Source: Candidatus Poribacteria bacterium
Lineage (GTDB): Bacteria > Poribacteria > WGA-4E > UBA9662
NCBI GenBank assembly: GCA_036339735.1
Contig: JAYZAL010000077.1
Location: forward strand, 32,001-96,000
Length of the DNA stretch: 64,000 bases
Reading direction: 5' to 3'
Within the stretch, counting starts at the first letter, position 1, and each line of letters begins with the position of its first letter. The position numbers were made by a program, and so were the translations under genes. Under the pieces are notes generated by a model, which ran no database searches, was not told the DNA's origin, and worked only from the letters and a program-made list of their open reading frames with translations. This document shows, piece after piece, positions 4,254-23,105 of the stretch.

Positions 4254-5090
4254 TTGTCATTGCCAATCAGAAATGCTATGCCGGATCTTAATCGGAAATT
4301 ACAATTTTTTCCATCTCAGAATAAAACCCCCAAGAAATTGAGTGAAGAACAAGTTCAACAATACAATAGAGAGGGTTATATTTGTCCATTAGATGTTTTT
4401 TCTGCAGGAGAAATTAATCTACACCGAGCCTATTTCGATCAGTTGATCGACAAAGCTATGAAAGCTGGGTGGAATAGTTATTCAATCAATGGTTGGCAAG
4501 CTAAATGTGTAGGTATTTACGACTTGGTCAATGAGCCGCGGATTTTGGACTACGTTCAAGATCTAATAGGAGAGAATTTAATCTGTTGGGCAACCCATTA
4601 TTTTTGCAAATTACCTGGGGACACCAAGAGAGTTAGCTGGCATCAAGACGCATCTTACTGGCCTTTGAGTCCTAGTAAAACTGTCACTGTTTGGCTGGCC
4701 ATCGACGACACAGACGTCGAGAATGGTGCTATGCAGATCATTCCACGATCGCACAAGCATGGCCAGATTGACTTTGAAGAAAGCACAGCCGAAGAGCAGA
4801 ATGTCCTTAATCAAACCGTTAAAGAACCAACGAGTTATGGATTACCACCGGTCGCCTTAGAAATGAAAGCGGGGCAGATTTCTCTTCACTCTGATTTGCT
4901 TTTACATGGATCGGAACCTAATACTTCTGACCGTCGGCGATGTGGATTAACCATGCGGTTTATTCCACCAGAAGTCCGCGCCTTAAATCGACGGAACCAA
5001 AACTCAATAATCGCACGTGGGATAGACCCGGACAATCACTGGTTTGCAGCTTCTCGGCCCGAATTTGATCAAATTCCAAGTAAAAATTAA
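4254..5090 (+). CDS. PhyH-family Fe(II)/2OG dioxygenase (canonical HxD)
   Basis: WHQDASYW, VWLAIDD..ENGAM..IPRSH, LLHGSEPN..RR. The start may be TTG at 4260, given AAGGAG spacing. Confidence 0.9.
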   Translation: MSLPIRNAMPDLNRKLQFFPSQNKTPKKLSEEQVQQYNREGYICPLDVFSAGEINLHRAYFDQLIDKAMKAGWNSYSINGWQAKCVGIYDLVNEPRILDYVQDLIGENLICWATHYFCKLPGDTKRVSWHQDASYWPLSPSKTVTVWLAIDDTDVENGAMQIIPRSHKHGQIDFEESTAEEQNVLNQTVKEPTSYGLPPVALEMKAGQISLHSDLLLHGSEPNTSDRRRCGLTMRFIPPEVRALNRRNQNSIIARGIDPDNHWFAASRPEFDQIPSKN

Positions 5091-5118
5091 CTTATATTAA
5101 AGTTCCGGAGGAATCCTA

Positions 5119-6150
5119 ATGCCAAGAGAATTGATTGCTACTAGTCCAAGTCAAGCAGCTCTACAAATGTACAAGGAACAAGTCCTCGCTAACGATGAAA
5201 TCCGGGTTCGTACACTATTTTCATCTCCTAAACACGGTTCCGGATTACGGTCATTCCGTGCCAATACTAAGGACTATACTTCTCCTTTCGATCGCAAGCG
5301 GGGAATTCATCACGGGCCCCCTATGCAACCGACATATCCGCAGCCACTAGGTAACATGGCTGTGGGAGAAGTGATTGAGGTCGGGGTTGAAGTTGATCAG
5401 TGGGGAATCGGTGATCATGTCTTTTCCCATTTGCCAATTCGAGACACGCACACACTAAAAGCGAATCGTGTTCAACCTGTCCCTTCTAACATGTCCCCAC
5501 AAGCTATTGTTTATAGCGATCCAGCCGGGGTAGCTCTTTGTGCTATTCAAGCTAGCGAAATTATGTTAGGTAGTACAGTGGCAGTTTTTGGTTTAGGTGC
5601 AATTGGTCAGATGGCTGCGCAGCAAGCTAAATTACAGGGAGCCAGACAAGTTTTTGTTTCCGACCCAATTCTCATACGGAGAGAATTAGCCATCAAACAT
5701 GGGGCTGATATAGCCATTGATCCGATTTCCGACGACGCGGGAGAGTTGATTAGGGATCACACCAATAATGCAGGGGTTGATATCTCTATAGAAGCAAGTG
5801 CTAACTACGCTGGTATGAATGATGCCATTCGATCGACGGGGTACGCTGGTCGTATAGTATCTGCAGCCTACTATATTGGGGATTCAAGTATTCTTAGTTT
5901 TGAAGGTGAGTGGCATCGGAATCAACTAACAATACTAACTACTCGTGATGTTAATCCAACTTTGAGAAATGCACCCCGTTGGGATACCAAGCGCCTACAC
6001 AATGAAGCTTTTGAATTACTAAAAGAAGAACGTTTATCTGTCGATGGCCTAATACATCCAATCGTGTCCTTTGAAGATTGTGTCGAGGCCTATTTAGCCA
6101 CAGATCAACGGCCTTCAGAAAGTATTAAGCTGGGCATACAACATACTTAG
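5119..6150 (+). CDS. Medium-chain (MDR/zinc-binding family) dehydrogenase
   Basis: GroES-like N-terminus 'LGNMAVGEVIEVG', Rossmann motif VFGLGAIG, GGAGG RBS. Confidence 0.85.
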   Translation: MPRELIATSPSQAALQMYKEQVLANDEIRVRTLFSSPKHGSGLRSFRANTKDYTSPFDRKRGIHHGPPMQPTYPQPLGNMAVGEVIEVGVEVDQWGIGDHVFSHLPIRDTHTLKANRVQPVPSNMSPQAIVYSDPAGVALCAIQASEIMLGSTVAVFGLGAIGQMAAQQAKLQGARQVFVSDPILIRRELAIKHGADIAIDPISDDAGELIRDHTNNAGVDISIEASANYAGMNDAIRSTGYAGRIVSAAYYIGDSSILSFEGEWHRNQLTILTTRDVNPTLRNAPRWDTKRLHNEAFELLKEERLSVDGLIHPIVSFEDCVEAYLATDQRPSESIKLGIQHT

Positions 6151-6171
6151 GATTGACTTCAAATCCTATTT
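6148..6171 (+). terminator. Candidate intrinsic terminator between convergent genes
   Basis: TAGGATT/AATCCTA stem followed by TTT. Confidence 0.4.
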
Positions 6172-6197
6172 AAAAATTAATGATCCATCATCCAGTA

Positions 6198-6974
6198 CTA
6201 CTCGGCGAGCTTGATTTGACTCCAGAGAAGAGAGAGTTTGTTCAGAGGCTCTACCACCAAAGTGGATGCTGCTATTAACTCATCCCGACTGAGTGCACGA
6301 TTCCAGAGTTTGACTTCATCGATAAGCCCATCAAAATACCGCTCATTATCCACCCACCCGATTTCCAACATTCGATCTACTGATCTGATTTTTCCTTTTT
6401 TCCCAACTCTTTTTTCAGGTTTACCGTTGATATATAGGGTATGGTTTTTTCCGTCGTAAACTGTTGCTATATGAACCCACTTGCCAATAAACTTCTCCAT
6501 ATTCGTTTGTCCAACTAGCCATTCCTGCGGTTGAGCTCCATACAAATAACTAGCCAAATTTCCTTTCTCATTGATATCAAGATAATAAGCCGTTGGCTTA
6601 CCAAGTACACAGTTACGGTGTTTCCAATCGTTTCCGATATAGACAGATTTTGGATTAATCCACGCTTCGATTGTAATTGAATTAATGATATCAAGAGACT
6701 TATTGTCCGCAACTTGCACATGAGTTTTCTTTTTTTTGTCAAATTCTAATGCCTGCCCTTTGACACCAGCAACACGCTTTGGTGAACCGATAACTTTGCC
6801 CACGTTCTCATTGTTGCTATTGTCTTTGGCTTGATCACCATTTTCGTCAAAAGACCAATGGGCGACTAGTCCTTCCTCCGCATTAACAATAGAATAACAA
6901 ACAAAAAACAAGATCAGCACCGCGATGACATCAAGCTTCCCAAATTCTAGTTGATTCATATTGACCTCTAACAA
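6198..6974 (-). CDS. Secreted LamG/concanavalin-like domain protein
   Basis: Signal peptide, 'GLVAHWSFDE', 'WVHIATVYDG', 'FDGLIDEVKLWNRALS', C-terminal VEPLNKLSLLWSQIK. Start probably ATG at 6959. Confidence 0.9.
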   Translation of the reverse strand: MLEVNMNQLEFGKLDVIAVLILFFVCYSIVNAEEGLVAHWSFDENGDQAKDNSNNENVGKVIGSPKRVAGVKGQALEFDKKKKTHVQVADNKSLDIINSITIEAWINPKSVYIGNDWKHRNCVLGKPTAYYLDINEKGNLASYLYGAQPQEWLVGQTNMEKFIGKWVHIATVYDGKNHTLYINGKPEKRVGKKGKIRSVDRMLEIGWVDNERYFDGLIDEVKLWNRALSRDELIAASTLVVEPLNKLSLLWSQIKLAE

Positions 6975-7195
6975 AAATATTCTTACGAATCATTAATTTA
7001 AATTGACGACGTGTATTCTCTCAATTGTTGAAATTATTTGATGTTTTATCTTACCACTGGTCGAGAGGATCTGGTTTCATTTTATCATCCTCAACATTTA
7101 ATGTGAATAAAATGGGCCCTTATACTTAGTAATCGGCTTACCTGAAGTCCAAGTTACTTTTGCCTTTTATGGGTGTTAATAAAATCTGTTGCGAC

Positions 7196-7224
7196 TTGAC
7201 CGTCCATACAAGATTTGCTACAGT
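7196..7224 (+). promoter_or_regulatory. Sigma-70-type promoter upstream of 7279
   Basis: TTGACC-N17-TACAGT with extended -10 TG. Confidence 0.5.
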
Positions 7225-7278
7225 GTAGCCCAGAAAGTTAGTTATATCTAGCGATAAAAGTTAAATATAGAATTTGCC

Positions 7279-8208
7279 ATGTCAGAAGCAATTAAAAATC
7301 AAAAAATAGCTAGCCAAGAACCGTTCATTTTCGATAATAACTGGGGAACTTGGGGTAGACTCCCCCAAGATGCCAACCAGCTTACGACTACTAATGCTGA
7401 TGGTGAACCCGTTGTTCCACTAACAGAAGAACAGAAATTTATTTTTGATACTCAAGGGTGGTTAGTAATTCCTGGTTTATTGAATGAAATTGATCTGAAG
7501 GAGATGAGGGAATTTTGTTATCAATTGGTTAATGATCAAGATTCCTTGCCGGTGCACCAACGCACGCCTATTGCTGGCCCACTCGAAAAACTGGTAGATC
7601 ACCCAGTCGTAGTTGGGTTTTGTAACGAATTTTTAGCCTATCCTGCCTTGTCAAGCGAAGACTACTACGGATTTCGTTTCGAAACTAGTTTTTTATTATA
7701 TAGACAAAAAGGTATGGGGAATTTTGGACCACATAATGGAAATGGTATCTGGCGGTTGCCAGGTAATTCTCATATATACCGAAATATTCCAGGGAAAGGA
7801 TATTCGGGGCTAACTCGTGTTGTTTGGGAACTCAATCCTGTTAACAAGTTTGAAGGTGGAACGCTCTTCGTTAATGGAAGCCATAAAGCTGCTTACAAAT
7901 TACCTGAGTCTATCCGCCAAATGGATTCATCACTCTGGGATAGTTATGAATGTCCTGCTGGTTCGGTTGTCTTTTTTTCTGAGGCCACTACACACAGTGC
8001 ACAACCGTGGCAGAATGAATCCATAGACCGAATTCCTATCTTCAACCAATATAACTCAATTGGTAGTCGTTTTCACTGGTGGGAGCCCCCCTCAGAACTG
8101 CTTGATCAAATGCCACCTAAGCGCCAGTCATTATTTCGACAAGCTTATTCAGAAGGTGCTAATACTGACCTTAGTACTCAAAATCTGTTTCGAAGGCCAA
8201 TTGGCTAA
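7279..8208 (+). CDS. PhyH-family Fe(II)/2OG enzyme, HxG variant
   Basis: 'EQKFIFDTQGWL', 'GGTLFVNGSHKA', 'CPAGSVVFFSEATTH'. Proximal motif is PHNG. Confidence 0.8.
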   Translation: MSEAIKNQKIASQEPFIFDNNWGTWGRLPQDANQLTTTNADGEPVVPLTEEQKFIFDTQGWLVIPGLLNEIDLKEMREFCYQLVNDQDSLPVHQRTPIAGPLEKLVDHPVVVGFCNEFLAYPALSSEDYYGFRFETSFLLYRQKGMGNFGPHNGNGIWRLPGNSHIYRNIPGKGYSGLTRVVWELNPVNKFEGGTLFVNGSHKAAYKLPESIRQMDSSLWDSYECPAGSVVFFSEATTHSAQPWQNESIDRIPIFNQYNSIGSRFHWWEPPSELLDQMPPKRQSLFRQAYSEGANTDLSTQNLFRRPIG

Positions 8209-8370
8209 TGTTAGACGATAGGAAAATCTCAATTTGTAATCTTATCCAAGATATGGATATTGAAATTAAACGGTTGTTGCTCAGCACGTATGACTACCGA
8301 AGACGCCTAAAATGAAAATCTGGAAGAGTTTATCTCAGATAGAATTATACTTTTCGTAGGAATTTTAAAA

Positions 8371-9426
8371 ATGCCAAATATAAAGTACAGGGTGGGGTTC
8401 ATTGGTTGTGGTCGAATTGCGGCTGCACATGCTCTAGGTTATCAGGGGGTTAGTCAGATAGAAATGGTAGCTATCGCTGATCCTGTTAGGAGTGTTTTAG
8501 ATAGTTTTGGCGACCAGTTTGGAATTAGTAATCGTTATTTGGACGCTCGGCAAATGCTGGATAAGGAAGATCTAGATATCGTTAGTGTTGCGACTTGGCA
8601 CAAATTGCATGCACCAATGACAATAGCTGCTTGTGCCAGTGGAATTAAGGCAGTACTATGTGAAAAACCTATGGCTACAACGTTGGGTGAGTGCCACGAA
8701 ATGATCACAGTAGCACAGCGAAATAATGTAAAACTTGCTATCGCTCACCAACGGCGCTTCTATTCAGCATGGACGAAAGCACGTCAATTAATTGCGGCAG
8801 GTGCGATTGGTCAACCTCGCCAGATCGTTTGCCGAGGCGGGCAAGGTTTGCTCAACGATTGTTCTCACCTATTTGATCTGATGCGTTACGTTTTAGGGGA
8901 TCCACAAGCTGAATGGGTAATCGGTAACCTTGAGCGTAAAACTGACCGCTATGAAAGGGAAATTCCCATAGAAGATCGAAGTGCAGGCATTGTCGGTTTC
9001 GCTGGTGGTTGTATTGGCTTACTCCTTCAAGAAATTGCTGGACCTAACTATCAAGGTGGAGTCGTTTATGGCTCAGATGGGATAATTGACTTAAACGAAC
9101 AAAGAGCTAGAATCCTTGACACTCAAAGTGCCAGCTGGACTGATTATCCTATGGACGGTGCTAGTACACATGTGGCCCAAGCTCAAGAATTAATCGACTG
9201 GATCGAAGATAAAACAATTCATCGCGGTAACGCCCAAAACGGGTTAGCCGCGGTAGAAATAATTATGGCAATCTACGAATCAGCCCGAATGCACGAAGTA
9301 GTAAAGCTACCCCTTCGCACGTATTGCTCACCGCTGGAACTGATGATAGAAAGTGGAGACCTGCCTGTTGAAAGACCTGGTCGTTACGATATTCGTTCAT
9401 TCTTGCTCCACGGTGAGGAGTTATAA
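8371..9426 (+). CDS. Gfo/Idh/MocA family oxidoreductase
   Basis: IGCGRIA, CEKPMA, DCSHLFD. Confidence 0.9.
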   Translation: MPNIKYRVGFIGCGRIAAAHALGYQGVSQIEMVAIADPVRSVLDSFGDQFGISNRYLDARQMLDKEDLDIVSVATWHKLHAPMTIAACASGIKAVLCEKPMATTLGECHEMITVAQRNNVKLAIAHQRRFYSAWTKARQLIAAGAIGQPRQIVCRGGQGLLNDCSHLFDLMRYVLGDPQAEWVIGNLERKTDRYEREIPIEDRSAGIVGFAGGCIGLLLQEIAGPNYQGGVVYGSDGIIDLNEQRARILDTQSASWTDYPMDGASTHVAQAQELIDWIEDKTIHRGNAQNGLAAVEIIMAIYESARMHEVVKLPLRTYCSPLELMIESGDLPVERPGRYDIRSFLLHGEEL

Positions 9427-9532
9427 TGACTACCGCACGCGGAAGTATAAAAAATCTAGGCGCGGGTAGGTAGATTATTATTTAGTGTTTTCGGTCAGTA
9501 TGCAGAGCCAGAAAATCAGGATCGTCTGTTTT

Positions 9533-10564
9533 CTAGCGATTTCGAACTTTGGTAGAATTCCAATAGTTTTTCAGCTTGATATATTGTTTGAGGTTTTCTT
9601 CACGTTTGGAAATCTCTAGTAATTGTTCGTTTTTCTGATTTTCTTTTAAACGTGGGTGATTTTTTATGATCACTCGCTCCTTTGCCATTTGAAGTTCTCG
9701 GATTGGAATCAGTTGATCGTTATTTGAATCCATAAACACTCCCCAACCACTGCCAACCTCACTTAGAATTTTTATTTCCTTGTCAGCTTCTGGTCCGTAT
9801 CGACCAAAAGCTAAAAAAACAGCCTTGATTCTCGCTTTCCACTCCGGAGATAAGTCTTTATGCCAAACCATCGGGTCGCTTGGAATGGGTGGACTAGTCC
9901 AAATAGTACGAATCGTATCAGTTTTGTCAGGATGATTCTTGTAGAATAGTCGCAACGATTCATCGTTGTTAGTCGCAAAGTCAACCTGTTTAGTTGCAAC
10001 CGAAATACAGTTCATCTCGTGACTAGCGTTCCGCATCCGTTTGAAGTATTTTTTGGGATTGATACCTTTTGGACCCCACAAATGGTAGCTTGGCATGAGA
10101 TAGCCAGATGTACTATTGGGATCGCCGTTTCCGAAGATCAGATCTTTCCCATTCTGAATAATTTCATCGATAGTCTGATAAGGACTATCTTTAGGAACAA
10201 TTATGACTGAATGGTAGCCGGAGGTCCCGTCATGATCAGTTACTTCAGCGAAGACTTCACCGTTTGCTCGATCAACTGCTTCCATTCCAGACTTATTACC
10301 GAACCAAGCGACATGTATTTTACCGAAACGTAAGGCTTCAATTACTCCAGCATAATCCGGTGAAAAGAACGACTTAATTGGTACACCCAAGTTTTTTTCT
10401 AGCTGTTTCAATAATGGATCAAATCCTTTTTTTAAATTACTACGGGACTCTGTAGCGATAATGCCAAACCTTAGTTCATCAATGTTTTCTATGGCTTCGC
10501 CCCAACTTGCCCAGCAACTGATACACAGTAAGAAAATAATTATATTTTTATATGAGTGACGCAT
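9533..10564 (-). CDS. phnD: Phosphonate ABC transporter substrate-binding protein
   Basis: Signal peptide, 'DYAGVIEALRFGK', 'WFGNKS', 'GDPNSTSGYL', 'IWTSPPIPSDP'. Confidence 0.9.
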   Translation of the reverse strand: MRHSYKNIIIFLLCISCWASWGEAIENIDELRFGIIATESRSNLKKGFDPLLKQLEKNLGVPIKSFFSPDYAGVIEALRFGKIHVAWFGNKSGMEAVDRANGEVFAEVTDHDGTSGYHSVIIVPKDSPYQTIDEIIQNGKDLIFGNGDPNSTSGYLMPSYHLWGPKGINPKKYFKRMRNASHEMNCISVATKQVDFATNNDESLRLFYKNHPDKTDTIRTIWTSPPIPSDPMVWHKDLSPEWKARIKAVFLAFGRYGPEADKEIKILSEVGSGWGVFMDSNNDQLIPIRELQMAKERVIIKNHPRLKENQKNEQLLEISKREENLKQYIKLKNYWNSTKVRNR

Positions 10565-10809: not shown

Positions 10810-11661
10810 GTGACATATCAATTTGAAAAAGGCAAGATTTATCGAATGCCAACCCACTTTGGCCCGAGTCTTGGACCAAGGCAAGGGCCAGACGGTCGGA
10901 CTTTTGAGTGCAAAGACAATCCTAAAACTACATCGATCTCAGTTAGTTTTTTAACTAATTCCGACCAGATAAAATCAATATTGCCAGAAAATTTTGTACT
11001 GCTAGGTGAGCCTGTCGTAACAGTTTCTGCAACCTATATGAAAGAAATTGAGTGGTTAGCTGGGCGTGGCTACAACACGCTAGGTGTCAGTTTCTCTGTC
11101 CAATTTAATGGTGAAAGGGATCAAGCCAAAGGAAACTTCTTATCAGTCTTATGGGAAAACTTAACTGATCCTATCCTGACAGGGCGAGAGGAAATTGGAT
11201 TTTCAAAAATTTATTGTGAATTGCCTGAGCCTAGAGTTTTACAAGGCACAACAACTTGTCAAGCCAGTTGGATGGGCTTCAACTTCATGGATATGAGTGT
11301 CTACAACTTGAACCAGGTGGAATTACAAAAACCTCTCTCATCGACAACTAAAAACGAAGAGTTAACTGGTACATTACACTACAAGTATATTCCCCATACT
11401 GGTGGGTTTCCTAGTAGTTGGGGGAAGGCGGATATTGCTTATGTCGTATTGACCCCGGAAAAAACTCCGAATCGAATTGTAACCGAGATGTGGCGAGGAG
11501 AAGGCAAAGTCTTATTCCATCACGCTCGGTGGGAGGATTTACCAACTCAATATACCATAGTTAATACTTTGAGCCAACTTGAAATAATAGAACCACGTGG
11601 TGCTAGTATAGTTAAGTCGATTGGTGGGAAAGATCTCAGCGATCAGCGAATTCTGAAATAG
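10810..11661 (+). CDS. Acetoacetate decarboxylase-like family protein
   Basis: 'YRMPTHFGP', 'WLAGRGYN', 'LWENLTDPILTGREEIGFSK'. AGGAG RBS. Confidence 0.8.
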   Translation: MTYQFEKGKIYRMPTHFGPSLGPRQGPDGRTFECKDNPKTTSISVSFLTNSDQIKSILPENFVLLGEPVVTVSATYMKEIEWLAGRGYNTLGVSFSVQFNGERDQAKGNFLSVLWENLTDPILTGREEIGFSKIYCELPEPRVLQGTTTCQASWMGFNFMDMSVYNLNQVELQKPLSSTTKNEELTGTLHYKYIPHTGGFPSSWGKADIAYVVLTPEKTPNRIVTEMWRGEGKVLFHHARWEDLPTQYTIVNTLSQLEIIEPRGASIVKSIGGKDLSDQRILK

Positions 11662-11672
11662 AGGAAAGTCGA

Positions 11673-12494
11673 ATGTATAATCTCAGTGGAAAAGTAGCGT
11701 TAGTAACTGGGTCTGGCGGGCAACATGGTATAGGCCGAGCTATTGCCACCCGGCTGGCTAAAGAAGGTGCAGATATTGTACTTAATGATGTTCAAAAAAC
11801 TCCGTACCAAGACAATAGATGGAATGGGATAATGTCCGTTGCGGAGGAAATTAGCAAGCTAGGGCGTACAGCTCTACCTGTTGTTGCCGACGTTAGTAAA
11901 GCTGACCAAGTACAAAACATGGTTCATCAGACGATAGAGACTTTTGGGCGTCTGGATATTCTAGTCAATAACGCTGGTGCTAAGGCTGGTAGTGATCGTG
12001 TACCTCTTATAAACCTAGAGGAGGACGATTGGGATCGAGTGCAAGAAGTCAATGTCAAAGGTGTATTCCTCTGTTGTAAGGTAGTTGCCAAACACTTGCT
12101 TGCCCAAGGCCAAGGTGGAAAAATTATCAATATTTCGTCTATGGCCGGTACAAAGGGTATTGCTCAATACGCATCCTATTGTGCTTCCAAATTTGCTGTC
12201 ATTGGTTTAACAGAATCGTTAGCATTGGAATTAGCCAGCCACAAAATTAATGTCAATGCTATATGCCCGGGATTAGTAGATACAGAAAGAGTGGGACATA
12301 TTGCTACAGCTACTATTGCGGGTGAATTATCCGACCAAGAAAAGAGAACTTTACTTGTCGATAAAACTACAGCCTCTGTACCGATGGGTCGTATTGCAAA
12401 TGTAGATGATGTAGCCAAAACGGCTGCTTTTTTGTCATCATCAGAAGCTGATTATTTGACAGGTTTATCGGTCCGTGTTTCCGGTGGAGTTTAG
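11673..12494 (+). CDS. Short-chain dehydrogenase/reductase (SDR)
   Basis: TGSGGQHGIG, NNAG, YCASK, NAICPG. Confidence 0.92.
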   Translation: MYNLSGKVALVTGSGGQHGIGRAIATRLAKEGADIVLNDVQKTPYQDNRWNGIMSVAEEISKLGRTALPVVADVSKADQVQNMVHQTIETFGRLDILVNNAGAKAGSDRVPLINLEEDDWDRVQEVNVKGVFLCCKVVAKHLLAQGQGGKIINISSMAGTKGIAQYASYCASKFAVIGLTESLALELASHKINVNAICPGLVDTERVGHIATATIAGELSDQEKRTLLVDKTTASVPMGRIANVDDVAKTAAFLSSSEADYLTGLSVRVSGGV

Positions 12495-17397: not shown

Positions 17398-18347
17398 ATG
17401 AACATTCGTAATACAGTCTGGTTGATTGTTTTTATTGGTTTGGGGTGTTTGCTGTTTGCGGATGGAGCAAATGCAAATCCGTTTGATGCCTTGCGAAAAG
17501 TAAATAAAGATTTAAATGTAAAGATACATTACCGTCTGGGAAGGATTTATCAAACACAAGGCAAACTTGATGATGCCATTACTGAATTCCAAAAGGTTAT
17601 TGAGATAGATCCTAAGAATGCAGACGCATACGGTTATCTAGGAGGAGTTTTTCAAGAACAAGGTAAACTGGAAAAAGCAATCAAAAAACAGTCGAGATCG
17701 ATCCTAACAATCTGTCAGGGCATTGCTGTTTAGGTTCGGTTTATATAATACAAGGCAAACTTAATGATGCTATTACCTCCTACCAAAAGGCAATTGATCT
17801 TAATCCTAACCATTCAATCGCACATCATGATTTGGGATATATTTATCGTGTGCGAGGTAAATATGAACAGGTAACTGCTAAACTTCGACAGGTTATTGAT
17901 ATTCCCCCTGACGAAGAAAAGATATTGAATTTCGGAAGTGATTTGCGTCCGTTTGCATACATCAATCTAGGAGATATTTATAGACAACAGGGTAAAGTGG
18001 AAGAGGCACTGGCAAAATTCCAACAGGAAATGCAGGTTGAGATTGCCCTTAGTATCGCACCTACATGGGTGAACGAGTGCCAGGGAATGATTTACCTTAC
18101 ACAAGGCAAACTAAATGATGCTGGCACCGAATTCCGACAGGTAATTGAGCTCGACCCCAACAATACAATGGTACATTACAACCTTGCCTGTGTGTATTCC
18201 CTGAAAAATGAACTCAAACTGGCAGTAGAATCCCTGCAGAAAGCAATTAAGTTGGATAAAAGTTATATTGAGTTGTCTAAAAAAGACCCTGATTTAGACA
18301 ACATTCGACAAACACCAGAATTCCAGAAGTTAATCGATTCCTACTAA
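17398..18347 (+). pseudogene. Exported TPR-repeat protein split by a -1 frameshift near 17685
   Basis: After 'GKLEKAIKK' the -1 frame continues 'TVEIDPNNLSGHCCLGSVYIIQGKLNDAITSYQKAIDLNP' without stops into ORF 17832..18347, ending 'YNLACVYSL...DPDLDNIR'. Confidence 0.8.
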
Positions 18348-19034
18348 CTACTCTAGTTTCTTACTCTGTCGGAAAAAATCAGTGATCTGTGCACAATGGT
18401 ATGCTTTCCCTTTAGAGTTGGTATATCCCATCTTAAATAAAATGTTAGAGATCTCTTGGTTGGTATAAGCACCTGATTTGAGTTCTTTAACATGTTTTAT
18501 CAGTTCGGGTTTGGTTTCCAGTACCGATTTACGGCCACCGGCTTTACCCCGACCTTTCAAGTCAACAATACCTTTTTGCTGGTTTTGGGTTTTTCTCTGT
18601 AACTTAGCTAACTGGTTCCCTAGTTTTTCGTACTCAACCACCACCTCAAACAATTGGTCGTCATCAGGGGTAGAATGTTGGTAACTCAGACTATCAAAGG
18701 TTCCAGTAATCGAAACCAGTGGCATATTCAGTTTCTCCATCATTTTCATTATTAACCTCTGTTGGAACCGACTGGTTTGACCGATACTGAGAAAGAAGTT
18801 AGGTTCGACAATGATGCAATTAACTCCCCGTTCGACACCTTTAGTGAATGCCAACCGGTCCTCATATCTTCGAAATGCCCAATTCCCATCTCCTGGTCTC
18901 CAATCATAGAACCATTCACCTAGAACCTCGATTTGGTTCTGGTTAATGAAATGTTGGATAGGATCGGGGTTGTGATCGTCAGGGTTTCCTCGGACTAATA
19001 CTACTACTTTTTTACCTGTTATATCTTGGTTCAT
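18348..19034 (-). CDS. Serine-recombinase (resolvase)-like protein with degenerate catalytic motif
   Basis: C-terminus 'GKAGGRKSVLETKPELIKHVKEL...EISNILFKMGYTNSKGKAY' is paralogous to the recombinase relic at 20878-21350. N-terminal 'VVVLVRGN' stands in place of Y-x-R-V/T-S. Confidence 0.7.
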   Translation of the reverse strand: MNQDITGKKVVVLVRGNPDDHNPDPIQHFINQNQIEVLGEWFYDWRPGDGNWAFRRYEDRLAFTKGVERGVNCIIVEPNFFLSIGQTSRFQQRLIMKMMEKLNMPLVSITGTFDSLSYQHSTPDDDQLFEVVVEYEKLGNQLAKLQRKTQNQQKGIVDLKGRGKAGGRKSVLETKPELIKHVKELKSGAYTNQEISNILFKMGYTNSKGKAYHCAQITDFFRQSKKLE

Positions 19035-19045
19035 ATTGTTTCATA
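19007..19045 (-). repeat. Cassette-boundary repeat, type R2 copy A (overlaps start of 18348..19034)
   Basis: 31/39 identical to 19404-19442. Minus-strand core TGAAACAATATGAACCAA. Confidence 0.75.
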
Positions 19046-19061
19046 ATATTGCAGTACGTTA

Positions 19062-19388
19062 TCAGAAGCAACATCGGCATTCACCTTCCTTACCGTCAAT
19101 TATTGAAACTCCATCACAATAAGTTTTTTCACCCAACATAGAAGTCTTTACCCCAGTTTCATTATAAAACGAGATTTTGCAACCTTTATTATTATCAATA
19201 TGTATTTCACCTCTCTTTTTCCCATTTTCATCTTCGATTATGATTTCTCGACAGGTTATCTTTCCAAACTTCGTATCTATTGACCCCTTATCTGCATTAG
19301 CATCAGTAACCAAAACCGAGTTCAACACCATTCCAGAAATAACTAGTAATCCCCCGATAACCAGAAAGACTAAATCTCTAATTTTCAT
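19062..19388 (-). CDS. Hypothetical N-terminally membrane-anchored protein (paralog of 19622..20128)
   Basis: MKIRDLVFLVIGGLLVISGMVLNS...FGKITCREIII aligns with MKLRDKILYMSFGAVLVVLGIVLNS...FGVITCKAIII. ATG at 19388 preferred over the track start. Confidence 0.75.
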   Translation of the reverse strand: MKIRDLVFLVIGGLLVISGMVLNSVLVTDANADKGSIDTKFGKITCREIIIEDENGKKRGEIHIDNNKGCKISFYNETGVKTSMLGEKTYCDGVSIIDGKEGECRCCF

Positions 19389-19403
19389 TTCTTGCGTCTC
19401 ATT

Positions 19404-19442
19404 CCTTTTTACCAACTATGTATTGGTTCATATTATTTCCTA
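19404..19442 (-). repeat. Cassette-boundary repeat, type R2 copy B
   Basis: Encodes a dead-end copy (MNQYIVGKKE*) of the start of the recombinase-like gene (MNQDITGKKV). Confidence 0.75.
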
Positions 19443-19621
19443 CTTTCCACTTTTTTCGTTTTTTTATGAAAGTAACTGAAATAAATAACTCTATAGAAAA
19501 GGGTTGCTAAAACAGTAAAAATCATTCCAACTACAATTTCTATTCCGTGATTACTAAAAATTTCAGATGTTACTATTTGACCATATCCTTGGGCTAACCA
19601 CCGTTTTTGTTTATTGATACC

Positions 19622-20128
19622 TTAATTTTCTTTGATCAAATCCGTAGGAGGAATTACTGAATCCGAAGTGTCTTCATTATTTAGGATTCTTTCTATTACA
19701 CCACTACCATCAAGACCCACTGTCAGACTAATAGCATTTTCTCCTGTTTTGTTAATACAATCAATACCTCCACCATTTTCGTTTATATACATTCTTACTT
19801 TTCTTTTATCAGTTTTAGGTTTTGAGTCGAGAACAAGCAGCATTTCATTGTTTTCTCCCTGATTGCTACCTAAATATACAACTTGTTGACTTAGGTCATC
19901 ACCAAACATTGTCAGCATACTACTATTCCCACTTTCATCTAATCCAAAATATGCTTTTCTCTCATTTTCACCTTGAATTATAATTGCCTTACAAGTAATG
20001 ACCCCGAAGTTCGCATCCTCTAAACCCACTTGTGCAACAGCATTAGTAACCAAAGAGTTTAAAACTATCCCTAGAACTACCAACACAGCACCAAATGACA
20101 TATATAAAATCTTGTCTCTAAGTTTCAT
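19622..20128 (-). CDS. Hypothetical membrane-anchored protein; frame stays open past TAA to 19433
   Basis: AAGGAG RBS adjoins repeat R1 copy 3. An in-frame continuation 'GINKQKRWLAQGYGQ...IVVGMIFTVLATLFYRVIY...SRK*' ends inside R2 copy B. Confidence 0.75.
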   Translation of the reverse strand: MKLRDKILYMSFGAVLVVLGIVLNSLVTNAVAQVGLEDANFGVITCKAIIIQGENERKAYFGLDESGNSSMLTMFGDDLSQQVVYLGSNQGENNEMLLVLDSKPKTDKRKVRMYINENGGGIDCINKTGENAISLTVGLDGSGVIERILNNEDTSDSVIPPTDLIKEN

Positions 20129-20138
20129 TTCTAACTCC

Positions 20139-20172
20139 TTATTGTTTCAACATATCACCGATCGAGGGTGTA
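20139..20172 (-). repeat. Cassette-boundary repeat, type R1 copy 3
   Basis: Minus strand TACACCCTCGATCGGTGATATGTTGAAACAATAA, 29/34 identical to 20878-20911. Confidence 0.85.
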
Positions 20173-20191
20173 TTGTTTGATTCTAACTTTT

Positions 20192-20639
20192 CTACATGTA
20201 TTTACTCTGATAACTAACAACATTAGCCTTGCTGGAAGTTACTTGACCTGTATCCGCATCAAATCCGGGTAGAAAACCTGTTACTGTCTAACGTTCTTTT
20301 TTGTCTACTCGCAGTATCAGTGCACCAGTAGTTCCAATGCCCACCTTCTCACGAGAAATATCGGTAAACATTCGATTGATACCATCATAAATCGGTTCTG
20401 ATCTCCTTCTTTGACCATCTTCACCACAATAATAAATTAGAACAAAATACATTAGTCTTACTGATGTTCCTTTATAATATTCCCGACCTTCTTCTATTAA
20501 GATAATCTTACCGTTTATATATTTCTTTTCACCTTTGGAAAGCAACTTTTTGTTCAAAAGGGATAACAAACGACCCCAAATTAACTTTAAACCCAAATAA
20601 AGGAACAATTAATTGTTTTACGACTTCAAATAATCTCAT
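20192..20639 (-). pseudogene. Hypothetical cassette gene with a frameshift and an internal stop
   Basis: GGAGG-ATG at 20639 (MRLFEVVKQLIVP...FEQKVAF) shifts into ORF 20288..20608. That frame continues past TAG to a stop at 20192. Confidence 0.5.
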
Positions 20640-20655
20640 CAACCCTCCATAGACA

Positions 20656-20689
20656 TTATTGCTTCACCATATCACTAATCGATTGTTTG
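20656..20689 (-). repeat. Cassette-boundary repeat, type R1 copy 2
   Basis: Minus strand ACAATCGATTAGTGATATGGTGAAGCAAT; the 29-nt core (20658-20686) is 27/29 identical to 20880-20908. Confidence 0.88.
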
Positions 20690-20881
20690 TTGCTGAGTTG
20701 TTTCTTCTTCAGCATTGTCCCAGAATTTTCTCTTCACCACGAGAAACATTATTGAACCAATAAATGAAATAACAAATATTATCAAACAGATTCGGATAAG
20801 TCTCTTGCGTTTCTCTTTTCTGATAAAACCAAAAAACAGTAGAATCAGACAAATCAGAAGAGGAATTATCAGTTTTATCAT
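20675..20881 (-). CDS. Small two-helix membrane protein (68 aa)
   Basis: Two hydrophobic segments separated by a basic loop. ATG overlaps the recombinase stop (ATGA); the stop lies inside R1 copy 2. Confidence 0.65.
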   Translation of the reverse strand: MIKLIIPLLICLILLFFGFIRKEKRKRLIRICLIIFVISFIGSIMFLVVKRKFWDNAEEETTQQQTID

Positions 20882-20911
20882 TGTTTCACCATATCACTGA
20901 TCGATTGTGTA
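20878..20911 (-). repeat. Cassette-boundary repeat, type R1 copy 1 (equals 3' end of serine recombinase gene)
   Basis: Minus strand TACACAATCGATCAGTGATATGGTGAAACAATGA, encoding TQSISDMVKQ*. Confidence 0.88.
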
Positions 20912-21350
20912 CTATATGGGTTGCCACGTTCGTTGAGGTAACCCATATCTGATAAATGTTTGGAGGTCTGACGCAAACTCATCCGTCTTTTGGTTTTCCA
21001 GTTCCGTTTTCGTAACCTCTTGACCACAACCTCACTAATTCTGGTTGCAGTTCCTTGTTCAATTTCCGACCTTCGCATTTACCCTCATCTTTCAGGGTAA
21101 CATGGTTGCGTGTTGATTCTGTTTCTTCTTTCTTTCCCTACTTGACCGACAAGTTAAAAACAATTTCTTCTCTCTGGTATTCTGAAATGGCAGACAGGAT
21201 TTGCCGGTTCCGTTAAGAGGTCTGATTATCTTCAAACCTACCATCAGTTACTGAAATCAGAGTAAAACCATCTTGTTTTAACCTTCGATATCCAAGTTCT
21301 AACTCAAATGAATTAGGACTTAACCGAGAAATGCTTTCAAAACGCAGTAT
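20878..21350 (-). pseudogene. Serine recombinase/resolvase pseudogene, 5'-truncated
   Basis: Fragments 'ESISRLS..ELELGYRRLKQDGFTLISV...TS*RNRQILSAISEYQREEIV', 'VTLKDEGKCEGRKLNKELQPELV', 'VKRLR...SLRQTSKHLSDMGYLNERGNPY'. Stops at 21213 and 21138, plus frameshifts. Confidence 0.82.
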
Positions 21351-21372
21351 AAGCCCAATATACAATTGAGTT

Positions 21373-21426
21373 ATTACGTAGATTACGTAGTGTTTTTAAA
21401 TTGCACATGTAGAAAATATGTAGAAA
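21373..21426. repeat. Two pairs of 9-bp direct repeats at the island right end
   Basis: ATTACGTAG x2 (21373-21390) and ATGTAGAAA x2 (21407-21415, 21418-21426). Confidence 0.7.
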
Positions 21427-21681
21427 GTAGAGAAGAGATGATTTTGAATGAAGTTTAAGACACTATTGCAGACACGGTAAGAATAAGTTAGTATTAGCAT
21501 ACCGATGTAAAAAACCAGACAGTTACTGGAAAAAATACATCAAAAAAGGTTCGGTGTAAAGTCGTATTCTTCTAGAAAAAACTCTTGCTCAACTAACGAG
21601 ACTTGGGTAGAGTCTGATTTGGTTGGATGAGTTGAGAACTACACTAATAATTAATTATCAATTCGATATGAGGGTAGACGA

Positions 21682-21912
21682 ATGAATCTAAGGATCGAAT
21701 ACTGTACAGCTTGAAATTATTTGCCACGCGCCGTCAGTTTGGCGGACAAATTACTTGGCCATTATAAAACACAAATAGCTTCTCTTACACTGGTTCCTGG
21801 GGGTGGTGGTTGCTTTGAGGTTTCACGTGATAGTGAAATTTTATACTCGAAACTTTCTACCAAGGAATTCCCCAGCCTGACTCAAATTACCGACGCTCTT
21901 GGTAGTTCTTAG
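21682..21912 (+). CDS. SelW/SelT/SelH (Rdx family) selenoprotein with CxxU motif
   Basis: GAGGG RBS, ATG at 21682, MNLRIEYCTA-TGA(21712)-NYLPRAVSLA...LVPGGGGCFEV...SKLSTKEFP. The ORF track shows only the part after TGA. Confidence 0.92.
21720..21750 (+). promoter_or_regulatory. Candidate bacterial SECIS hairpin
   Basis: CCGTCA-GTT-TGGCGG stem-loop, with G as first loop base 22 nt after the UGA. Lower stem TTTG/CAAA. Confidence 0.65.
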
Positions 21913-21930
21913 TTTGTCTTTTGACAAACT
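21911..21930. terminator. Hairpin between convergent genes (candidate bidirectional terminator)
   Basis: AGTTTGTC-TTTT-GACAAACT. Confidence 0.5.
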
Positions 21931-21932
21931 TC

Positions 21933-23105
21933 CTATTCGAATGCGGCAGGTTCAACTACCTGTCGCATATCCCAGATTAGGATCTGTCCATTGGTTGTTC
22001 CAGTCGCCAAATAAAACAAATCATCTTGCTGACTAAATCTGAGAGAAAATGAACAGTAGAGGTCGAACAAGCCTAATTTTCGTGTAGATCCAAATCGTCG
22101 AAACGTTTTTTCTTCCATCGACCAGACGTAAATCTTGTCTGAAGTCTGACACAAGAAAAAAGCTTTGTTCGGGCCAAAAGACAGATTCCCACCTCGGCTA
22201 GAAACTTGGTTTTTAATTGGTGATACTTTTGATAAATCCCAACTTAATATGGATTGCTCTGCTCCAGAAGCGATCAGATAATTATCCGCTAATGATATTG
22301 AACCAATCTTCTCTTGGCCAGCCAATAACGTTTTCTCTAATTGTCCATTAGCTAAGCTCCAAAATCGGACAGTACCATCCCAAGAACCAGAGACCAACTG
22401 CTCTCCATTTTGAAAAAAATCTAGTGCGGTTACATTATCGGTATGCCCTCGAAAAGTATAGACTAATTTTCCCGTAATAATGTTCCAAAGAAAGATATTT
22501 CCATTTAGGGTAGCAATAGCTAGTAAAATAGGTTGATTAGGACAGAAAGCGAGAGTGGTTACCCACTCTCCCCGAGGTGAAGTTGTAAAAAAATCATCTT
22601 CATCATCCTCAAAATCTGTCTCTTTGTCGTCCGTCGATGGTTCAAAAGCAACTAAAGTACGTTCTATAATCCCGCTCTGTGGGTCTAAAATTTGAACTTG
22701 GCCATTGTAAGTACCATAAGCTACAGCTGCAGAATCAGGGCTCGCTACGACGGCAGTTATTAAATCTTCATTATTATCTTGAGTTGACCAACTAACTGTC
22801 CATTCCGAATTATTTATGGAGCCAGGTGGTAGAGGGTTATCTATATCATTTTGGCTAACATTTCCTTCTTCCCAAAGACTAATTTGGTACCCCGTTGCAA
22901 TTAACAAATAAGCGCAGTCGTGTGAAAATGCTAAATCCGTTATCGGTGTACCGCTCGGAATATTCAAAATTTGTACGGGATCAGATGGAAGTTGGGGGAA
23001 ATTAGTTTCAGCAACCACTCTCGTGGGTAAATAGCTGATAGCAAGATAAACCATTACATAATAGAATAAATTCAACAGCTGAAGACACTTAGTTTTTTCC
23101 GTCAT
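21933..23105 (-). CDS. WD40-repeat protein
   Basis: 'FRGHTDNVTALDF...LVSGSWDGTVRFW', 'LATGTTNGQILIWD'. Hydrophobic N-terminus; overlaps lpxI. Confidence 0.88.
   Translation of the reverse strand: MTEKTKCLQLLNLFYYVMVYLAISYLPTRVVAETNFPQLPSDPVQILNIPSGTPITDLAFSHDCAYLLIATGYQISLWEEGNVSQNDIDNPLPPGSINNSEWTVSWSTQDNNEDLITAVVASPDSAAVAYGTYNGQVQILDPQSGIIERTLVAFEPSTDDKETDFEDDEDDFFTTSPRGEWVTTLAFCPNQPILLAIATLNGNIFLWNIITGKLVYTFRGHTDNVTALDFFQNGEQLVSGSWDGTVRFWSLANGQLEKTLLAGQEKIGSISLADNYLIASGAEQSILSWDLSKVSPIKNQVSSRGGNLSFGPNKAFFLCQTSDKIYVWSMEEKTFRRFGSTRKLGLFDLYCSFSLRFSQQDDLFYLATGTTNGQILIWDMRQVVEPAAFE

Follow-up and report, generated by a model that had tools for sequence, protein, structure and literature searches.

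How does a row of small genes come to lie between two recombinase-like genes, set apart from one another by near-copies of the end of one flanking gene and of the start of the other? This question is raised by a locus of Candidatus Poribacteria bacterium (assembly GCA_036339735.1, contig JAYZAL010000077.1, positions 32,001 to 96,000), a 64,000-nucleotide (nt) stretch of DNA that we analysed as a whole and refer to as the window. Read on the minus strand from 21365 to 18348, the sequence and the list of open reading frames (ORFs) give the order rec1 relic, R1a, tm68, R1b, B, R1c, A168, tm30, R2a, A117 and finally R2b with gene2, where rec1 and gene2 are the flanking genes and R1 and R2 are the repeats (Table 1). 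An earlier interpretation from the letters alone, here called the sequence-only reading, had taken the junction of a two-gene recombinase operon for an attachment site that captures single-gene cassettes. The answer to which we lean, tentatively, is a decayed cargo slot of a mobile element in pelagic Poribacteria. Insertions into it would have duplicated two junction stretches, and the array would now be changing by homologous recombination.

A repeat-bounded array of small genes

The three copies of R1 and two copies of R2 noticed in the sequence-only reading were confirmed in position and identity, far above chance. Allowing up to three mismatches, an 18-nt R1 pattern matched the window four times against 0.09 expected, a number reached by 0 of 100 shuffles, and three of the four matches are R1a, R1b and R1c. 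Across the whole genome (4.3 Mb), the pattern at up to two mismatches was found at these three places only, and a scan that had been proposed as a check thus confines R1 to this locus. For the motif GAARYAAT, said to be common to all junctions, the window has 30 occurrences where 17.05 ± 3.67 would be expected; its minus-strand occurrences from 19035 to 20887 number exactly five and coincide with the five junctions. Upstream of R1, the three units that end in it have no likeness to one another (scores of 22, 25 and 25 vs shuffle maxima of 26, 28 and 31). R1 is thus a discrete element of ~31-42 nt and not the stump of a longer duplication. An age gradient among the R1 copies was considered and dropped, as both later copies match R1a at 29/34 positions and the difference in the core (27/29 for R1b, 25/29 for R1c) is too weak. 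Beyond this genome, an R1 20-mer had two matches in genome contigs, one in the Poribacteria metagenome-assembled genome (MAG) G004 and one in Hoylesella, the latter judged to be chance, and a single match in viral contigs, with no homologue of the genes of the locus nearby.

The repeats are closely interlaced with the reading frames. The ATG of tm68 overlaps the TGA of the rec1 relic and its last codons lie inside R1b, which in its own frame still encodes the final residues and stop of the relic. R2a forms a 10-codon ORF in the window, with its stop 14 nt before the ATG of A117. The distance from repeat to start codon ranges from overlap to ~80 nt. R2 relics in the window (19404-19442) and in two related loci (L012 5103-5136; L014 3632-3676) retain an ATG and an open frame of 10-14 codons, which ends 12-14 nt ahead of the start of the following gene or overlaps it; in one R2 copy of L012 the ATG is lost. 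The first junction of the R2 series carries no R2.

In R1a-c the best arm match for dyad symmetry was 7/12, which 1066-1909 of 2000 shuffles reached, and a search for the two inverted half-sites, set around a 2-bp centre, of a crossover site, extended to both natural R1/R2 junctions, likewise gave 7/12 at best (reached by 551-1909 of 2000 shuffles). Folded as single-stranded DNA, the five junctions formed no hairpins (z-scores of 0.47, 0.84, -0.34, -2.00 and 1.40). An Rfam scan of 17500-22500 at E 0.1 gave no match. Six promoter-like sites were found in the array, compared to 11.5 ± 3.1 expected, and none of them lies at a repeat on the minus strand; the site scan found no terminator-like site inside the array.

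Table 1 Features of the array, in the order in which they are met on the minus strand of the window
Feature	Description	Position	Strand	Basis
rec1 relic	Pseudogene of a resolvase-type small serine recombinase, without the N-terminal catalytic part	20878..21365	-	Three-frame translation
R1a	Final 34 nt of the rec1 relic, including the stop codon	20878..20911	-	Sequence, pattern search
tm68	Two-helix membrane ORF, 68 amino acids (aa)	20675..20881	-	ORF list
R1b	29/34 identical to R1a, 27/29 in the core	20656..20689	-	Alignment
B	Membrane-anchored protein gene, damaged in the window	20195..20608	-	Homology to intact 138-aa B
R1c	29/34 identical to R1a, 11 nt ahead of the A168 start	20139..20172	-	Sequence, alignment
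A168	N-terminally anchored protein with beta-rich ectodomain, 168 aa	19622..20128	-	ORF list
tm30	30-aa membrane ORF ending at the R2a junction	19433..19525	-	ORF list and related loci
R2a	Relic copy of the gene2 ribosome-binding region and first 12 codons, 31/39 vs R2b	19404..19442	-	Alignment
A117	Paralogue of A168, 117 aa (108 aa from its ATG)	19062..19388	-	ORF list, alignment
R2b	Ribosome-binding region and first codons of gene2	19007..19045	-	Sequence, alignment
gene2	228-aa resolvase paralogue with C-terminal helix-turn-helix	18348..19034	-	ORF list, profile comparison

The genes between the repeats are co-oriented single genes, as had been suggested, and 6 of the 6 ORFs of the array lie on the minus strand. 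One gene per space does not hold throughout, since tm30 is an additional ORF between A168 and R2a; it recurs at 73-82% identity in four related loci (L012, L015, L017 and L019). The unit that had been called a broken ORF is B, which is indeed damaged in the window (its ATG is lost and it has one in-frame TAG) and is 82% identical to the intact B138 of L014. At position 20290 most related contigs carry C and read GAG, and the TAG of the window is the minority state. B has no Pfam family, and the best score of B138 in a protein atlas (0.84) lay below the usable level; no PHROGs family was found for tm68, B138, its paralogue B167, A168, A117, A132 or A93. The idea that tm68 arose by divergence from a copy of the 5' part of B was dropped as unproven: 57, 34 and 9 of 300 shuffles attained the nucleotide scores, and the protein scores of 22-25 were below the shuffle mean of 23-26.

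The anchored-protein (A) genes have a leader and an anchor in common. In the protein atlas, the clusters nearest to A168 all consist of unnamed Poribacteria proteins; of 176 genomes from the phylum, 47 contain matches to the family, and in genome G006 a 77%-identical orthologue stands solitary among host genes, with no repeats. The anchored proteins are an ordinary, common host family.

Assembly support came from assembled contigs of four runs; stretches uncovered in single runs were not used as evidence. The repeats are bridged by contigs from three other runs, belonging to three studies; one of these runs may be the source sample of the MAG. X15 record 21 spans 20637-21008 and X1 record 5 spans 19412-20223, both with 0 differing letters, and X2 record 27 spans 19008-20221 with two. 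Misassembly at the repeats, which would have undone the sequence-only reading, is therefore unlikely. The stretch is present in 20 marine runs from 10 studies.

The two flanking genes

We compared 41 sequences (the window, L007, L008 and L012-L049), 12 of which hold both a rec1 match and gene2. In the window, the rec1 relic is spread over three frames and begins at about residue 78 of the intact protein. Relative to the intact recombinase of locus L037, it is 60% identical to residues 78-186, with two stops, and 54% identical to residues 183-232; its match to PF00239 has 23.3 bits. The L037 recombinase itself is intact at 232 aa (Resolvase domain, E 3.6e-20; DNA invertase phrog_125, E 8.1e-18). 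It is the only intact one among the 12 loci, the other 11 lacking the catalytic N-terminus, and rec1 is dead in every poribacterial locus, also in those that differ in gene content.

The partner gene had been described as recombinase-like. This proved correct as to kinship: gene2 has no Pfam family, and its profile aligned to that of the intact recombinase with a probability of 99.25% (hhalign, E 5.9e-20, 184 columns). The catalytic serine, however, is absent. In 17 sequences of the gene2 family R15 and G16 are invariant with no serine there, where the recombinases read R-T-S-S, and the arginine-bearing motif of the catalytic domain is also lost. A serine recombinase relative without the nucleophile serine and the arginines can still bind DNA, but it cannot cut it. 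Judged by these motifs, gene2 is a clear, non-catalytic resolvase paralogue, and its product is probably a DNA-binding protein. The structure model (predicted local distance difference test score of 82.7) had no match in a PDB fold search at E ≤0.001; the best, at 2.7e-3, was Bxb1, amid generic alpha/beta folds. Serine recombinases are among these weak matches, which are too weak to say more than that the fold is compatible. While rec1 decays, gene2 stays intact in most loci. Against viral contigs, its profile gave 80 pattern matches, of which 0 were confirmed.

No intact resolvase-domain gene was found by a PF00239 search of the 92%-complete genome, in which the only two matches are weak and both non-catalytic; beyond the locus, the genome has one more serine-less paralogue, on contig C19, and no other resolvase-domain gene. 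Consistent with the statement that no IntI or attC hairpin is evident, the two matches to the tyrosine recombinase family PF00589 lie on C49 and C29, away from C77, the contig of the window. In two further loci (L038 1363-1485; L039 1011-1169), gene2 relatives of a 226-aa clade (~40% identity) have an A168-like gene downstream, after a hairpin-like stretch, indicating that resolvase-like and anchored-protein genes are neighbours in more than one arrangement.

Gene content of related loci

The 12 loci fall into seven architectures. Between rec1 and gene2, the window holds tm68, B, A168, tm30 and A117; L012, L015, L017 and L019 hold A168, a tm gene, A157 and A108; L014, which is the same as G004, holds B, A132 (with a BamE-like domain) and A93 (with a DUF4177-like domain); L032 holds A124 and A93; L007 (G001) holds B and A92; L021, L034 and L043 hold a single A gene of ~186 aa; and L037 holds four unrelated small ORFs. 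The comparison of related loci that the sequence-only reading had called for thus bore out variable content, but neither of its other expectations: a fused, empty rec1-gene2 junction was found in 0 of the 12 loci, and the order of common genes did not change among them.

Two differences are bounded exactly by R1. Compared to L012, the window has an additional tm68-R1-B-R1, and the difference ends exactly at R1; L014 and L032 differ by B and one R1. The tm68 and B insertions or deletions (indels) each amount to one unit plus one R1, as predicted by deletion between direct repeats. The R1 copy following B matches at 26/32 positions between the window and L014, compared to 81.5% for the B cassette. 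R1 has thus diverged about as much as its cassette and shows no sign of constraint.

A 299-nt X12 contig with 14 ambiguous letters joins 20662 to 20885 and skips 222 nt, namely tm68 and one R1; it is only ~92% like the window, which indicates a related lineage and not the same strain. Loose ends at 20880 have two other continuations, and with tm68 this makes at least three right-hand neighbours of R1a across populations. At 21020, loose ends in X12 and X15 show contigs that match the relic from 21020 downwards and on their other side continue into letters resembling the R2 start of gene2; this suggests variants with an R2 copy upstream of the last 140 nt of the relic.

The locus with the intact recombinase has a different setting. 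In L037, a 1029-aa DUF5906/VapE-like primase-helicase is followed by intact rec1, the four small ORFs and gene2, and no copies of R1 or R2 were found in the cargo between rec1 and gene2. The four ORFs (4856-5993) have a common internal repeat encoding an acidic D-F-P-N-N-L-T-E-E-Q-like motif, and a 377-nt non-coding stretch follows rec1. Intact rec1 relatives also occur in 25 viral contigs. Across 31 loci (25 viral, 5 genomic and L037), the search for a second copy of the rec1-relative 3' end (last 30 nt, at most eight mismatches) gave 0, a threshold that also misses a diverged copy known in L117. In G004, Sipho_Gp157, a cI-like helix-turn-helix gene and a 524-aa large serine integrase abut the final 25 codons of rec1. 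In L021 the stop codon of the relic is lost, and a single frame of 327 codons (1008-1991) runs from the rec1 relic into the anchored-protein gene.

Homologous crossovers in the anchored-protein genes

The changes in the anchored-protein genes have a different signature. Positions 20165..19210 of the window align to 4371-5328 of L012, and 19410..17701 align to 5625-7322. A117 is a chimera: its 5' part aligns to A157 of the relatives and the rest to A108, with the breakpoint inside the conserved anchor, and is thus the product of an unequal crossover there. A second event links L014 and L032, which have a block in common that is 92-100% identical, from the interior of the A132 anchor through R2 and A93 to ~150 nt into gene2, with flanks of 63-87% identity. 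The gene2 tree disagrees with the array type, consistent with exchange of this block. Homologous crossovers within conserved coding sequence, not the repeats, account for the differences among the anchored-protein genes.

Origin of the array

Our tentative reconstruction starts from a small mobile element in which a resolvase-type rec1 and its serine-less paralogue gene2 enclosed a cargo slot, as they do in L037. A remnant of it would have stayed at one chromosomal site, beside a TPR gene, in the pelagic Poribacteria lineage, where the slot expanded into an operon-like row of small membrane-protein genes. New genes would have entered at the two ends of the slot by a crossover in a short stretch common to the incoming DNA and the target, namely R1 (the last 31-42 nt of rec1) and R2 (the first 12 codons of gene2 with the ribosome-binding region ahead of them). 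A Campbell-type single crossover would duplicate that stretch on either side of the insert and yield R1-gene-R1 and R2-gene-R2. Ordinary homologous recombination would then have reshaped the array, by deletion between R1 copies, by unequal crossover where the 5' anchors of the anchored-protein genes are conserved, and by the exchange of whole blocks between lineages. As the agent of insertion, we think host or phage homologous recombination likelier than a site-specific recombinase. In favour of the reconstruction are the dead rec1 and the non-catalytic gene2, the mobile-element genes at L037 and G004, the chimeric A117, the block exchanged between L014 and L032, the indels of one unit plus one R1, an R1 that shows neither constraint nor dyad symmetry nor a hairpin, and the ordinary host family to which the anchored proteins belong.

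Several observations weigh against this reconstruction. Homologous insertion needs every incoming DNA to bear R1 already, which it leaves unexplained, and 34-nt repeats at 85% identity are poor RecA substrates. The unrelated tm68, B and A168 are each preceded by a discrete R1 with a common right boundary at the rec1 stop. Two homologues of tm68 in marine metagenomes (64% identity, 71 aa, and 69% identity) likewise run at their C-termini into an R1-like stretch, even at 64% identity, so gene and R1 move together or are retained together. Host-type WD40, SelW-like and TPR genes flank the array in the window, with no phage genes adjoining, and a recombinase from an infecting element could also have acted in trans.

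The leading rival, which we consider unlikely, is integron-like capture. R1 or the R1/R2 junction would be the crossover site of the rec1 family, and circular single-gene cassettes bearing R1 would integrate at the rec1 end and excise again. This would once have taken place in cis; today, if it still occurs, it would depend on infecting elements that bring in an intact rec1 to act in trans, and the array would be a platform that has lost its integrase, much like an attC cluster that lacks one. Such capture would fit an R1 that ends three unrelated units, always at the stop codon, as well as the indels bounded exactly by R1, the several neighbours of R1a, the R1-like end retained by the distant tm68 homologue, the intact rec1 relatives in viral contigs and in L037, and the lack of internal terminator-like sites. 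A more specific version, which we consider unlikely, would make the last 31-42 nt of the recombinase gene the attachment site, with cassettes that carry their own copy as the counterpart of attC and integrate at the stop codon; the platform, having lost its enzyme in pelagic Poribacteria, would be served occasionally by the intact rec1 of infecting elements. What survives of the capture proposal is that content varies and that tm68 and B come and go with an R1. What tells against it is a rec1 that is a relic in 11 of 12 loci, even where content differs, a non-catalytic gene2 in a genome where the search found no intact resolvase-domain gene, and an R1 that lacks the inverted half-sites of known serine-recombinase crossover sites. 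Moreover, the ends of the rec1 relatives are not repeated in any of the 31 loci at the threshold given above, L037 has no copies of R1 or R2, the 12 loci offer neither an empty junction nor a changed order, and the anchored-protein gene changes break away from the repeats.

Two further explanations dispense with foreign cassettes. Tandem duplication and divergence alone, with no foreign insertion, seems to us quite improbable: an illegitimate duplication that took in an A gene and 36 nt from the start of gene2 would, with later unequal crossover, give the R2 series, and a like event at the rec1 end would give the R1 series, whose interiors then diverged beyond recognition. For the R2 part this does well: R2 follows an anchored-protein paralogue in every unit, its absence from the first junction is as predicted, the A genes have their leader and anchor in common and unequal crossover is directly seen. 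It fails to account for tm68, B and A168, which are unlike outside R1 while the R1 copies are 85% identical, so that interior and boundary would need very different rates; similarly, the A paralogues are 38-52% identical as proteins vs 79-90% for the R2 relics as nucleotides. Least probable in our view are R1 and R2 as selected cis-acting elements, either sites to which the gene2 helix-turn-helix binds (a resolvase that has become a regulator, compare repression at res) or leaders for translational coupling. The persistence of gene2 alongside a decaying rec1 would suit this, as would the short frames that R2 relics keep near or across the next start in the window, L012 and L014, and the overlap of the relic stop with the tm68 start. 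The R1 copy after B, however, diverges at the neutral rate of its surroundings, one R2 copy has lost its ATG, no promoter-like sites lie at the repeats, and the distance from repeat to start codon varies.

Comparison with known systems

Classical integrons use the tyrosine integrase IntI and attC sites, imperfect inverted repeats that fold as hairpins at the 3' ends of cassettes. Similar to integrons and integrase-less attC clusters (CALINs; Cury et al. 2016, PMC4889954), the array consists of co-oriented, apparently promoterless single genes, each with a repeated element, beside a recombinase gene; its content varies among relatives, and such arrays persist without a working integrase. In contrast to those systems, no IntI adjoins the array, there is no attC-like hairpin and no reshuffled order, and what is repeated closely copies the 3' end of the recombinase gene itself.

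Tn3/gamma-delta res systems, the Gin/Hin/Cin invertases and multiple-inversion systems are built on small serine recombinases with several sites. rec1 belongs to that family, and the repeated sites lie beside or inside the recombinase gene as in those systems, but here every copy is in direct orientation, the genes that the copies bound differ, R1 is without dyad symmetry, and the recombinase is a relic with a non-catalytic partner. Integrative elements, for example tRNA-gene islands, accrete in tandem at a single attachment site, where the target gene's 3' end comes to be directly repeated. Here, too, a copy of the target 3' end flanks each insert, the gene end is restored and successive inserts give an array; unlike those elements, the inserts measure 190-480 bp, hold one gene and have no integrase of their own, and the target is the end of the recombinase gene itself. 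The features of tandem paralogues, common sequence and a chimera at the copy-number breakpoint, were found for the R2/A part only and not for tm68 and B.

The mosaic genomes of phages have been traced to relaxed homologous recombination acting on short conserved sequences (De Paepe et al. 2014, PMC3945230). The block exchange between diverged relatives, the breakpoints in short conserved sequence and the phage-type genes beside the array in G004 resemble this pattern; the differences are that no single-strand annealing recombinase was identified here and that the window copy lies among host genes.

Other features of the window and of G004

Contig C38 of G004 (L099) offers a second case of a gene between short direct repeats beside a serine recombinase gene. 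Three direct 30-nt copies of 70-90% identity (8751-8780, 8910-8939 and 9418-9447) adjoin the 5' end of the gene for the 524-aa large serine integrase (7109-8683, minus strand), and the last two bracket B167, a paralogue of B. The 30-nt pattern occurs at no other place in the G004 genome at up to two mismatches. A likeness of these copies to R1 was considered and is only a lead: the score of the best pair was reached by 14 of 2000 shuffles and those of eight other pairs by 51-1852 of 2000. The same contig has an inverted duplication of ~220 nt (9661-9884 and 11640-11864, 72-83% complementary) of a cI-like helix-turn-helix gene, the second copy of which is broken; it encloses 1.75 kb with SWIM-finger, 185-aa and Gp157-like genes.

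On the plus strand of the window, next to the array, lies a SelW/Rdx-like gene of 76 codons (21682-21912), in which an in-frame TGA at 21712-21714, within a C-T-A-U motif, is a candidate selenocysteine codon (U). Under translation table 11 only the 63-aa part after the TGA is seen as an ORF. The gene is 94-95% identical in four related loci (L012, L015, L017 and L019).

Implications

One limited literature search, covering titles and the openings of abstracts, did not meet a serine-recombinase cassette array. If capture were site-directed, the locus would be the first cassette array founded on a serine recombinase and on the end of that recombinase's gene, and intact homologues make this directly testable; as a serine-recombinase platform, it would mean that the integron principle arose a second time, independently. 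On the more ordinary reading that we tentatively prefer, a dead mobile-element slot would have become a hot spot for small genes of membrane proteins in an uncultured marine lineage of global distribution. Short junction duplications may then seed later gene gain and loss, while a resolvase paralogue survives without its catalytic residues.

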